The translations under genes and the position numbers were made by a program. DNA of 64,000 nt from a virus: IMG/VR virus record IMGVR_UViG_3300027969_002800, positions 32,001 through 96,000 of that record; one strand, written 5' to 3'. Every line of letters begins with the position of its first letter. The stretch's first letter is position 1. The notes beneath the pieces are model-generated. The model did not search any database. It was given only the letters and a program-made list of their open reading frames with translations, and was not told where the DNA came from. Below are positions 31,785 through 63,493 of the stretch, piece after piece.

Positions 31785-32090
31785 CTAATTATCCTTACAA
31801 AACTGTCCATTTCTCATAACTCCACTACGTTTAGCTATTACATTGTATGCACTCTCTAAACATTCTGTCAAACTCACTCCTTGCAGTTCTGCTTGGATGA
31901 TGATTGTAACTAGGATGTCACCTAGTGCATCAATTATCTCTTCTTTGTTGTTATCAAAGATAGCATCTGCTAGTTCTTCCACTTCTTCCAATGTTTTATC
32001 ACATTGTCTACCTGGTGTTCCATTCTCTAGAATACCTTTTTGTTCTGCCCATGCTAATACAAGAGCTTCTAATTCATTGTAACTTTTCAT
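31785..32090 (-). CDS. MazG-like nucleotide pyrophosphohydrolase
   Basis: KTLEEVEEL..IIDALGDILVT. Confidence 0.85.
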   Translation of the reverse strand: MKSYNELEALVLAWAEQKGILENGTPGRQCDKTLEEVEELADAIFDNNKEEIIDALGDILVTIIIQAELQGVSLTECLESAYNVIAKRSGVMRNGQFCKDN

Positions 32091-60699: not shown

Positions 60700-61365
60700 C
60701 TATACTTGTTTTCCAAAATATTCTTTTGGAACTTTAAAAGCATTTAATGAATATTCAATAGCATCTTGTTTAAATTCTTCTTTTAGTTTGCTTTCCCAAT
60801 ATTTACAATTAGCGTAAAAGTAATTATCAAAATCTCCATCTTCTGAATATTCTAAACAATCATTATCAAATTTTTCAAGTAATTCTTTAGAAGCAATTTT
60901 TCTAAATTCTTCAAAACTTAATGGTTCTTCTTTTGGAATGATGATTTTGTATTCAGACCAATTTCTAATAGGTTTACCAGTAACAGTGTCTATAAAAGTT
61001 CTTTTAACCTCAACCTCCTCACAACTTGGATTCTTAACAAACCATTCTAAAAATTCATCATCAATAGCTTTTACACCATCTTTGATTAAGTCTTGGTATG
61101 TTGTTAGAATTATTTTTTTGCAACTTGGAGCATCATTAGCTAATTCAAACATTTCTCCATTAGAAATGGTATTGTTATCAACATTTAGCCAATAATCATT
61201 AAGTTTAATTTCTTCATCATTAGTGATGTATATGTGTTGCGGAGTAATAGAGGCTACTCTATTATCATACATTCCAGCTTCTTTTTTACATAAGGCTAGT
61301 CCTGTTCTAATAGATTTAGACAACCTACTTAGTTTATCTGTTGATAATACGTGTATGTTTTTCAT
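60700..61365 (-). CDS. Hypothetical protein
   Basis: MKNIHVL..HIYITNDEEIK..CKKIILTT..IDDEFLEWFVKNPSCE, a Flavobacterium-phage-type ORF. Confidence 0.6.
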   Translation of the reverse strand: MKNIHVLSTDKLSRLSKSIRTGLALCKKEAGMYDNRVASITPQHIYITNDEEIKLNDYWLNVDNNTISNGEMFELANDAPSCKKIILTTYQDLIKDGVKAIDDEFLEWFVKNPSCEEVEVKRTFIDTVTGKPIRNWSEYKIIIPKEEPLSFEEFRKIASKELLEKFDNDCLEYSEDGDFDNYFYANCKYWESKLKEEFKQDAIEYSLNAFKVPKEYFGKQV

Positions 61366-61663
61366 ATTATAATGTGTTTTTATAGTTAAATTGTAAGTTT
61401 TAAACTGACTAGAGTGATATAAATCATAATATAATGTGATTTATAAAAGAATAAGGGCTCCACTACAGAGCCCTTGAATTCTCCTCCCTAATAACCCAAC
61501 TTATGCAGTTGGTCTATGTTGGCTTCTACAATATACACACCATGTGTTATTGTACATGAGAATGCTATACACATAGCAAACGCTAATTGTCTGAATTGCC
61601 AAAACTCTGTTGGCTGTAATCTAATTGTCTTCATTTCTATTGTTATTAAGGATTAATACATAA

Positions 61664-61694
61664 TAAGAAAAGCCCCTAGTTTCCTAGAGGCTTT
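61664..61694 (-). terminator. Intrinsic terminator closing the RNA-gene cluster
   Basis: AAGCCTCTAG-GAAA-CTAGGGGCTT followed by TTCTT on the - strand. Confidence 0.7.
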
Positions 61695-61862
61695 AATAGG
61701 ACCTTCTCCCTTGAGAGATGTCAATTGTTGAGGTTAGGAACTTTGGATACCCTGCTTCTCTATGAGTACTCAACACCTTCTCTGCGTGGATAGGACTCAA
61801 CATTCGTGGCATGCAAACTACCCAATGTCTGTTACTGTGCTATTTGCGTCAAGTAACTGCTG

Positions 61863-61958
61863 TGATTGAGACAGGACTTGAACCTGTATGTGTACCGAGT
61901 TTATTTGGATTATGAGTACACTTAACCCAATTAGCGTCTACCATTTCGCCACTCAATC
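61863..61958 (-). tRNA. tRNA-like element (Leu-type D arm, aberrant anticodon region)
   Basis: Acceptor GATTGAG/CTCAATC+A; D arm TGGCGAAATGGTAGACGC; T arm ACAGG-TTCAAGT-CCTGT; no canonical 5-bp/7-nt anticodon arm. Confidence 0.6.
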
Positions 61959-61975
61959 ATTTAATAATAGATAAA

Positions 61976-62479
61976 CTACATTTTATTTATATAAGATCTA
62001 TTTGCAGATATATCACGTATTGTTGCATAAGGTATATCATACTCTATAGATAAATATTTCAAATCTAACTTTTCTTTATTAGTTCTTCTTAATGAGATTA
62101 TATTATATATCTGAGTAACTAAAGTAATATCAAATTGTCTATTAGGTGGTACATGTCCTTTTTGAAACTTTTTACCCTCATCTACTACTAATCTACCTTT
62201 AGCTTTACAATCTTGCATATTATCTTTCTGTGTACCTAAAAATAAATGATTAGGATTTACACATTTTCTGTTATCACATGTATGACAAACTTTTAATGTA
62301 TTATCTGTGATATTACCGTAAATTAGCTCATATGATAATCTATGAGAACCATGTGTCTTATCTTTTGTTTTAAATGCACCGTATCCATTTGATCTACATG
62401 ATGCTGTCCATTCCCAACAATCATTCTCTGATTTGATACTTACTTTATCCCAGAATCTTTTAATTTGTTCTTCAGTCAT
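61976..62479 (-). CDS. HNH homing endonuclease
   Basis: RFWDKV..CWEW..GYG..HRLSY..VCHTCDNRKCVNPNHLFLGTQKDNMQD. Confidence 0.9.
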   Translation of the reverse strand: MTEEQIKRFWDKVSIKSENDCWEWTASCRSNGYGAFKTKDKTHGSHRLSYELIYGNITDNTLKVCHTCDNRKCVNPNHLFLGTQKDNMQDCKAKGRLVVDEGKKFQKGHVPPNRQFDITLVTQIYNIISLRRTNKEKLDLKYLSIEYDIPYATIRDISANRSYINKM

Positions 62480-62494
62480 AATATAATTATTTTG

Positions 62495-62543
62495 CCACAG
62501 GGATAAGAATTGAACTTACATTTACATACCATTATGCCCTGTG
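62495..62543 (-). ncRNA. Mini tRNA-like element lacking an anticodon arm
   Basis: CACAGGG/CCCTGTG acceptor; CATA-ATGG-TATG D-like arm; 5-nt linker; GTAAG-TTCAATT-CTTAT T arm. Confidence 0.65.
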
Positions 62544-62875
62544 TGGTGGAGGTGGCGGCATACGATAGCCGCGTCCAAATTACGTTCATCAATACAATTT
62601 ATACAGCTTATTTAGGGTCAAGCTCAGCTTAACGATCCACCACTCTGTTTAATCTAACAGAGAAATCTTCATTAATTTAGGCTGCTACACCAAGATCAGT
62701 ATCTACATTCAATAATGAGAACACTTTGTTCATGTTAGCTTCGATTTGTGCGTTTGCTCCTAGAGCCACTACACGAGAATTGTTTTTGCCATTTAATTAA
62801 ATTCACCTTAGTTTACAGTTATCTCTCTGGCTGATTGTATTAATTATTGGTAACCTGTCAAATCCAGTCACCCCC
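62544..62875 (-). ncRNA. ssrA: tmRNA
   Basis: 5' GGGGGTGACTGGATTTGACAG and 3' CACCTCCACCA form an acceptor stem with G3:U70 and encoded CCA. Tag ORF 62790-62677 ends ..GVAA*. 332 nt. Confidence 0.93.
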
Positions 62876-62879
62876 AAAA

Positions 62880-63312
62880 TTGTAGGATATCGCTTAACCT
62901 ACGAAGTTGATCACACTTCTTTTCTATACGAACGATTTTTTTTAGCACCCAGTTTATATAGCTTGAATCTCTCAAGCACCATGCCTTATTAGGGTCTCTA
63001 TATAAACTTAGGGTCACGTAGTAAGAGATGCTCTAAATGTTTTTTACAGATAGACTGGGACACATTACTACTTGCTGAGAACTCATTTGTGTTGTATATG
63101 CAGAAATTCTCATATCTTCATCTCATTATCTTTCTCAAGGATAACAACACATTCTACATCTCTGTAGACATCTTTATGTAAACACACTACTATAGCCAAG
63201 TCTTTTAACGCAGACCTCATTAAGGCAGGCTTTTTGTTTACAAAGGTATTCAATGTTTAACCTATAGCTTCTAACAGATTATAAGTTCTGACGCTTTACA
63301 CAGCTTAGCTAT
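62880..63312 (-). ncRNA. Candidate large structured non-coding RNA
   Basis: About 430 nt with no ORF in the track; many hairpins, three capped by GAGA loops; long-range complementary segments; lies between a TATATTTG box and the tmRNA. Confidence 0.5.
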
Positions 63313-63320
63313 TTATTATG

Positions 63321-63328
63321 CAAATATA
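63321..63328 (-). promoter_or_regulatory. Bacteroidota-type -7 box (TATATTTG) heading the RNA cluster
   Basis: TAnnTTTG consensus. Confidence 0.6.
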
Positions 63329-63493
63329 ATAAATTATTATTGATTAAGTGTATGTCTTACATCAATTGTTCTTTGTCTTATAATTCCTCTCTTGAAATTA
63401 TATATCACTTCTACTATTAGTCTCTTAGACAATGTATGTCTGTAGGTATTAGTTGAACCAACTAATGTTCCTTTACTAATTCTAGGTCTCATG

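Follow-up and report, generated by a model that had tools for sequence, protein, structure and literature searches.

A gene for a one-piece transfer-messenger RNA (tmRNA) lies on the minus strand of the window, by which we mean the whole 64,000-nt stretch of DNA analysed here (positions 32,001 to 96,000 of the IMG/VR virus record IMGVR_UViG_3300027969_002800). The record is 116,993 bp long, is rated complete and contains one tmRNA. A typical tmRNA tag is a degron only about 10 residues long, and few known RNA motifs are as highly conserved as the T-loop. The window gene holds an open tag frame of 37 codons and, in the position of the T-loop, a hairpin that we read as a bulged stem capped by a triloop. 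The coordinates of these and neighbouring features are collected in Table 1.

A first-pass annotation, made from the sequence alone, had called the locus a phage tmRNA, and this is borne out both by its place in the virus record and by Rfam, whose model RF00023 matches over its full length (1-374) with 72.8 bits (gathering score 47, E 2e-26). The check with two programs that it had proposed gave a divided answer, Rfam recognizing the gene and ARAGORN calling no tmRNA at 62544-62875. The 7-bp acceptor stem (GGGGGTG/CACCTCC) includes G3:U70, the alanine identity pair, and is followed by a discriminator A and a 3′ CCA; read towards the 3′ end, the order of elements is GGAC, GCGGC, TATCGTAT, GCCGC, CACCTCC, A and CCA. 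The window tmRNA can be aligned with 26 relatives, and the alignment displays compensatory changes in the acceptor, helix 2 and the T stem, with acceptor pairs 4-6 covarying and G3:U70 kept in 27/27 sequences. The pseudoknot 1 (PK1) region was aligned by Rfam, its pairs being invariant across the relatives and without covariation signal, and PK1 is followed by a U-A context and then by the open tag frame with its degron end. A Logan contig from sequencing run X1 reproduces positions 62400-62831 with 0 differences, the 8-nt loop included, which excludes an assembler artefact; X1 may be the source sample and hence is not independent evidence. A search of the 117-kb phage record for genes of the SmpB, ClpP and PolyA_pol families found none. 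The window gene is a genuine phage-encoded one-piece tmRNA.

Table 1. Features of the tmRNA locus in window coordinates
Feature	Position	Strand	Details or basis
One-piece tmRNA gene	62544..62875	(-)	332 nt including encoded CCA; Rfam RF00023
5′ acceptor strand GGGGGTG	62869..62875	(-)	Pairs with CACCTCC (62548-62554)
PK1 region motif AGAGAGATAACTG..ACTAAGGTGAA	62802..62828	(-)	Signature of phage lineage
Tag reading frame	62677..62790	(-)	GGC 62790-62788, 37 sense codons, TAA 62679-62677
Variant T-arm GCGGC-UAUCGUAU-GCCGC	62555..62572	(-)	5-bp stem plus U1-A7 and A2-U6, UCG triloop, bulged U8
3′ acceptor strand CACCTCC, discriminator A, encoded CCA	62544..62554	(-)	Sequence
Free-standing HNH endonuclease gene	61976..62479	(-)	Starts 64 nt past tmRNA 3′ end; Pfam HNH_3 PF13392
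Aberrant tRNA-like gene, 96-97 nt	61863..61958	(-)	Rfam tRNA 37.9 bits; ARAGORN 'tRNA-Thr(agt)', 97 nt
Conserved noncoding element, ~200 nt, terminator-like hairpin at end	61655..61862	(-)	blastn, alignment
Conserved 48-aa open reading frame MKTIRLQPTEFW...VEANIDQLHKLGY	61488..61634	(-)	tmRNA strand, downstream; tblastn

A long tag frame shared by a phage lineage

The tag frame begins at a GGC that directly follows TTAAAT and translates to GKNNSRVVALGANAQIEANMNKVFSLLNVDTDLGVAA before its stop codon. The resume codon, which the first-pass annotation had placed by context, is aligned by Rfam with the consensus resume codon and sits in a U(-5)/A(-4) context at a fixed distance from PK1; the 37-codon count from it also stands, as does the likeness of the start and the AA end to Bacteroidota tags, host tags being of the GENNYALAA type in 28/30 loci. 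Two further descriptions were not sustained. The tag had been called exceptionally long, and 37 codons proved to be the second commonest length in a lineage that spans 24-49 (9 of 81 unique peptides); the insert had been called helix-like, and a hydrophobic-moment scan turned up nothing distinctive, so that the idea of an amphipathic helix was dropped. The window tag contains NAQIEANM, is near-identical to the tags of four relatives (L079, L006, L108 and L107) and ends in VAA, unlike the extended Lon tags of the Mycoplasma type with their AFA-type end. An open frame of 111 nt is mildly unlikely in the window alone (P = 0.073, 20,000 shuffles), and its significance comes instead from the relatives that share it.

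The long-tag lineage and the variant-arm class described below were both defined within this analysis, the former by the PK1 signature AGAGAGATAACTG-N(1-9)-ACTAAGGTGAA together with a tag of at least 24 codons containing a Q-x-x-A-N-M core, features that the window gene possesses. In an exact pattern scan the PK1 motif matched at least 118 IMG/VR contigs and, among 185,579 species genomes (one each), a single contig, which is 4.9 kb long and phage-like. Of 122 loci, 118 contain the complete frame, and it is open in all of them; they reduce to 84 unique sequences at the nucleotide level and 81 at the peptide level, the peptides being 24-49 residues long with a mode at 35 (26 peptides). The stop is TAA in 67 and TAG in 17 of the unique nucleotide sequences, and amongst the unique tags 75/81 end in AA and 80/81 contain the ANM core. 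In Flavobacteriales hosts the tmRNA scores are 118-181 bits (56 of 61 genomes above threshold, one of them the phage-like contig) and the tags have 9-10 residues in 28/30 loci. This comparison of tag lengths, which had been suggested at the outset, establishes that the long tag is a trait of the lineage and not an oddity of the window.

Cultured phages belong to the lineage as well. Forty isolate-phage records match the 5′ half of the gene by blastn, 29 of them FpV4-type Flavobacterium psychrophilum phages and nine Cellulophaga phages; the isolates with lineage matches include FpV4-like phages, Cellulophaga phi38:1, phi40:1 and Calle, and the crAss-like phi14:2. From the resume position the frame stays open for 35 codons in FpV4, 30 in Calle_1 and 38 in phi14:2. 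Rfam confirmed a tmRNA in FpV4 and Calle and ARAGORN did so in Calle and phi14:2, beginning both tags downstream and missing the tmRNA of FpV4. In the deposited records of phi40:1 and phi38:1 (KC821612/KC821614), phi14:2 (KC821624) and the FpV4-type phages the tmRNA region is unannotated or lies under short 'hypothetical protein' open reading frames (ORFs), and among the matched isolates a tmRNA is annotated only in the Calle records. The available text of PMC8776804 treats this lineage as a count only, 'one tmRNA gene' in Calle. The window phage has no close cultured relative, since its DNA polymerase is at most ~33% identical to those of isolate phages, among which megablast with 14 kb of window sequence found only a 51-nt match. 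The lineage is large and apparently undescribed, and its known hosts are in the Flavobacteriia.

Several lines of evidence suggest that the frame is translated and that part of the peptide is selected. We placed the resume codon by a rule blind to the frame downstream, and it falls 9-12 nt past the PK1 motif with U at -5 in 84/85 and A at -4 in 85/85 unique contexts. Eight N-terminal length classes, with 5-17 codons ahead of ANM, are all in frame and free of stops, and frames +1 and +2 contain stops in 84/84 unique sequences. In well-occupied columns the third codon positions are the most variable (entropies of 24.5/23.0/37.2 by codon position). The dN/dS check that had been proposed was run across the lineage and favours a selected peptide, the pairwise median being 0.45 and the ratio falling below 1 for 92% of 2,502 pairs. 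Each of the invariant residues Q, A, N and V is spelled with 2-4 codons (N with AAC in 51 and AAT in 32, A with four codons, V with three) and the hydrophobic columns hold L/I via eight codons. The conserved core reads Q-[IV]-x-A-N-M-x-x-V-[FH]-[SN]-[LI]-[LI], and purifying selection upon it supports some peptide-level function while leaving its kind unspecified.

As a chromosomal counterpart, the one-piece tmRNA of Flavobacteriales resembles that of the window in its G3:U70 domain, the D-loop GG...GAC, PK1, Gly/Asp resumption behind a context rich in U and A, and a tag with a G/D-x-N start and a non-polar-AA end. It differs in length (~395-410 nt against 332 nt), in Rfam score (118-181 against 72.8 bits) and in tag (9-10 against 37 residues), and the window RNA has fewer pseudoknots after the frame and no T-loop. 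Mycoplasma tags are about 27 residues long. The extended, Lon-recognised ssrA tags of Mycoplasma and Mesoplasma likewise far exceed 10 residues and internal parts of them are thought to be recognised, whereas they end in AFA and their organisms lack ClpXP, ClpAP and Tsp, as far as the available text of PMC3985003 goes; the phage tags keep AA (75/81) and have no evident sequence resemblance to them. Overall, the commonest tag length is 10 residues (PMC11915505, in its available part). Earlier phage tmRNAs comprise those of the Bxz1-like mycobacteriophages, Bacillus phage G, DS6A with a tRNA-like domain (TLD) only, and the two-piece tmRNA of OM43 phage Melnitz. According to the available portions of PMC4131195 and PMC9004378 these too are phage-borne ssrA genes without a phage smpB, with proposed roles in the upkeep of hijacked translation machinery or in tagging proteins for recycling, and the same portions do not mention long tags or a non-T-loop arm. 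In the full-text literature we found no description of long phage tags or of a tmRNA arm without a T-loop; the tables of the tmRNA database in PMC11915505 may list such sequences uncommented.

The variant T-arm and its surroundings

The first-pass annotation had described the T-arm loop of the window as non-canonical and 8 nt long, and both statements are accurate; its further notion of a variant T-loop gives way to a bulged stem with a triloop, to which covariation points. The arm is closed by a C:G pair rather than G53:C61, and the 8-nt TATCGTAT stands where a canonical T-arm has TTCRANY. Within the lineage this arm is unique (1/109 arms), 7-nt TTCRANY-type loops being found in 106/109 and a G:C closing pair in 100/109, and the encoded CCA is likewise confined to the window (1/109 members). 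Near relatives, at ~88% identity, differ from the window mainly in the arm.

Beyond the lineage, a search with the loop and generic flanks fixed found the same loop in 75 other viral contigs and the pattern was absent from 401 sampled Bacteroidota genomes. The 5-bp stem is perfect in 75/75 contigs, and there are 12 or more different stems, fully compensated. Exact 18-21-mers of the window arm recur in tmRNAs from unrelated phages, permuted as well as one-piece (L160-L164, L166, L167), and a second contig of run X1 has only a 38-nt arm segment in common with the window. Where variant-arm loci were sampled, Rfam detected a tmRNA in 15/17 and, in another sample, in 4/4. A looser pattern that left six loop positions free returned the loops TATCGTAT, TCTCGGAT and TTTCGAAT plus variants at position 8. 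In the resulting 27 distinct arms, whose stems had been pre-filtered as perfect and whose loop pairs had not, loop positions 2 and 6 form AU in 12, CG in seven and UA in five, positions 1 and 7 form UA in 24, and 98.9% of cells pair, a score reached by 0/500 shuffles. Because positions 2 and 6 covary, we read the arm not as a T-loop but as a stem of 7 bp that has a single bulged base and is capped by a UCG triloop. The class can be written U-N-U-C-G-N'-A-N, with N:N' complementary and the 5-bp stem closed by C:G (or U:A), immediately ahead of the 3′ acceptor strand, and the window arm conforms to it.

ARAGORN called a tmRNA in one of the 20 variant-arm loci tried, 18 of which are Rfam-positive. 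This sole call (L238) is a variant-arm tmRNA with a 9-residue tag and the arm and the long tag are therefore independent features. Since ARAGORN also missed the window gene and FpV4, pipelines that depend on it for annotating phages probably report too few such tmRNA genes.

Of the 75 contigs, 46 have CCA and 26 have CTA as the tail after the variant arm; in the 36 contexts with a recognisable 5′ partner the tail is CCA in 31, CTA in three, and CCT and CAT in one each. The idea that the variant arm forces an encoded CCA was upheld only in part, given CTA in 26/75 and a lineage comparison (1/109 with CCA) that is confounded by ancestry. The two loci without an Rfam match among the 17 sampled belong to the CTA-tailed group, and L320, L324 and ~15 similar IMG/VR contigs combine a variant arm, an acceptor-like sequence and CTA with no Rfam tmRNA and no nearby 5′ partner. 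Matches to RAGATH-9, RAGATH-22 and the Hatchet ribozyme occur in the same loci as arms of this L320/L324 type. At L168:6914-7296 (+) and L110:6195-6708 (+) a GOLLD RNA (Rfam 280 and 176 bits, respectively) is encoded no more than a few kb from the tmRNA gene; the L168 tmRNA is of the variant-arm type, and L110 matches the PK1 motif but yields no callable tag or T-arm and no Rfam tmRNA.

A 35-nt 3′ module of the window gene (TTGGAC...CCA) is identical to the module of a permuted tmRNA in L161. Judged from these sequences, the window gene looks like a chimera of a long-tag body and an imported 3′ module, the variant arm having probably arrived by recombination along with the encoded CCA. By tRNA geometry, a 7-bp arm on a 7-bp acceptor would amount to 14 helical layers, equal to the 12 bp plus two tertiary layers of the normal elbow, and such a stack may mimic elbow length without D-loop contacts.

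The T-arm DNA of the lineage is a target of mobile endonucleases. The HNH gene that follows the window tmRNA matches HNH_3 with E 3e-8 and 33.6 bits (cut-off 24.8), and a 68%-identical homologue lies directly 3′ of the tmRNA in L045 and L093. In L160, and likewise in six of the 53 variant contexts, SegE-like and other GIY-YIG genes stop ~40-46 nt before the arm begins. Three relatives carry group I introns (Rfam 94-96 bits) after T-loop nucleotide 2, at L040:2766-2989 (-), L037:3998-4221 (-) and L098:1524-1739 (+), and the intron carries on its opposite strand a LAGLIDADG endonuclease gene, located in L040 at L040:2362-2781 (+) (Pfam 33 bits). Inspected by eye, L103 and L115 appear the same as these intron-bearing relatives. 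The available text of PMC11915505 reports 'position 3' tmRNA introns for the class Bacteroidia, to which the three introns correspond, and there as in the lineage T-loop DNA is frequently invaded by mobile elements; it does not mention a variant arm that escapes them. The window differs from those systems in having no intron, and has instead a replaced arm and an adjoining free-standing HNH gene.

The noncoding stretch 61300-63400 contains no Rfam family at E <=1 except the tmRNA and a tRNA. The aberrant tRNA-like gene has normal-looking acceptor, D and T arms and a 32-nt insertion in the anticodon region, and L037 has a 69-nt version at the same place with a stunted anticodon arm. The ~200-nt element, which contains hairpins and may be a co-transcribed trailer or a small RNA, begins in L094, L040 and L057 right at the 3′ terminus of the tmRNA. 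The 48-aa ORF was found by tblastn in 27/121 loci, always on the tmRNA strand and 300-2065 nt past PK1; its middle is hydrophobic, and its C-terminal VEANIDQL resembles the tag core IEANMNKV, perhaps by chance. Pfam searches identified no family in this ORF or in the neighbouring ORFs of L164 and L161.

Mechanism, rival explanations and meaning

The explanation that we favour, with a probability of roughly 0.7, is that the window gene is a genuine tmRNA with two departures from the usual form: a long tag under selection and a probably imported arm that lacks a T-loop. As predicted from the sequence, after alanine transfer the ribosome would resume on a Gly or Asp codon 9-12 nt past PK1 and would then translate 24-49 codons, 37 in the window. 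The resulting tag would begin and end in host-like fashion, with G-K/N-N... at the start and non-polar-AA, a presumed ClpX/ClpA-type degron, at the end, and would carry between them an insert of ~25 residues with its conserved core. Because the phage record lacks genes for SmpB, ClpP and a CCA-adding enzyme, the RNA would have to borrow SmpB, AlaRS, EF-Tu and proteases from the host. Its most likely role is to increase the capacity for ribosome rescue in the infected cell and to label the rescued proteins with a lengthened degron. By analogy with SspB-binding residues and with the Mycoplasma Lon tag as described in the available text of PMC3985003, the conserved insert would offer an adaptor or a further protease a second site of recognition; a putative redirection of rescued proteins by the insert, as imagined in the first-pass annotation, is plausible. 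The variant arm, for its part, may persist by altering the DNA target of endonucleases while the RNA keeps working.

A number of observations weigh against this explanation, some of which lend themselves to a rival. Charging, ribosome entry and tagging by the window RNA are putative steps. An RNA-library contig of a relative (run X19, 19 differences) attests presence only and does not prove transcription; runs X20-X24, with small word shares, and parts without read cover were left aside. As a peptide, the N-terminal third of the tag is under weak constraint (in the subfamily with 17 codons ahead of ANM, entropies of 6.65/7.63/9.70 and 54 synonymous against 191 nonsynonymous codon differences). 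As to persistence through a changed DNA target, L045 and L093 pair the HNH gene with a canonical T-loop, and the link to endonucleases is weak, a homologue of a seed endonuclease being present in 6/53 variant-arm neighbourhoods against 1/78 canonical ones, with all three seeds taken from variant loci. Nearest-neighbour folding leaves the 8-nt loop open, so that the extra pairs rest on covariation only.

It is unlikely, in our estimation, that the window copy is a decaying or inactive tmRNA whose tRNA-like domain was disabled by loss of the T-loop. The arm has lost the G53:C61 pair, A58 and the 7-nt loop of canonical tRNA-like domains, ARAGORN fails on it, and a long-tag body is joined to a variant arm just once in the 109 arms of the lineage, so that the chimera could be recent and untested by selection. 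Decay, however, would not repeatedly yield one precise structure, and 75 other viral contigs retain this arm, their stems compensated and their loop pairs covarying, most of those sampled being full Rfam tmRNAs; the rest of the window tmRNA, including the tag frame, is intact.

We also consider it improbable that what maintains the long frame is a demand of the RNA itself, for instance spacing or the architecture of helix 5, and that the peptide sequence is irrelevant. RNAalifold pairs GCUA in the A-N codons of the core with UAGC in the V-A codons near the end of the frame, with two compensatory changes and a hairpin between them in the 3′ half of the ORF, so part of the nucleotide conservation of the core may be at the RNA level; pseudoknots 2-4 are reduced in short members. 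Against this stand the synonymous codons at invariant residues, the variable third positions, the low dN/dS and the interchange of L and I. A specific form of the idea, that the long frame replaces lost pseudoknots, was rejected, tag length showing no compensation for the length of the remaining RNA (Spearman -0.04, p 0.72, n 78).

That the RNA is a decoy which titrates SmpB and inhibits host trans-translation rather than tagging, in the manner of the TLD-only RNA of DS6A, seems quite unlikely. A DS6A-like TLD molecule strongly inhibits tmRNA according to the available text of Hudson et al. 2014 (PMC4131195), the window phage has no SmpB, and the variant arm might retain SmpB binding but not function on the ribosome. 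A decoy has no need, though, of a conserved, open and selected frame of 24-49 codons with a degron-like end, nor do the conserved resume context and PK1 fit one.

An ordinary short tag, with the resume codon further downstream, only the last 10-22 residues appended and the upstream open frame incidental, is very unlikely. The first-pass annotation had named a downstream resume codon as what would overturn its claim, ARAGORN does start the tags of Calle and phi14:2 at AQIEANM... and GSSVQKLAMVA, respectively, and the weakly constrained N-terminal codons are compatible with it. Yet the U(-5)A(-4) context holds in 84-85 of 85 cases at a constant 9-12 nt from PK1 and coincides with the Rfam consensus, eight N-terminal lengths remain in frame without stops while the other frames are closed in 84/84, and the proposed start G/D-K/N-N resembles host tags. 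Finally, the ATG of ANM, invariant in 84/84 unique sequences, might be a conventional start codon that makes the 3′ half of the frame a small separate gene, a reading that we regard as highly improbable since Met has a single codon, so that an invariant Met suffices, and the upstream N-A-Q-[IV]-x-A-N is conserved in the same frame with synonymous variation.

A bolder version of the favoured explanation, which we put forward tentatively and as less probable than not holding, is that the insert is a phage-specific signal (for a dedicated adaptor, for another protease or with a peptide activity of its own) that gives rescued proteins another fate than host tags do, and that the bulged hairpin replacing the T-loop in many phage tmRNAs works on the ribosome and spreads as a mobile 3′ module because it is immune to introns and homing endonucleases. 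If this were true, the T-loop/D-loop elbow would be dispensable for trans-translation.

On the favoured explanation of a genuine tmRNA with a long selected tag and a probably imported arm, a large environmental phage lineage, with cultured members among Cellulophaga and Flavobacterium phages, keeps a tag three to four times as long as is usual, and this tag contains a selected internal motif. Whether phages reprogram trans-translation becomes a question directly testable in available phage-host pairs, and the variant arm, if functional, would reveal what the ribosome, EF-Tu, SmpB and processing enzymes require of a tRNA-like domain.

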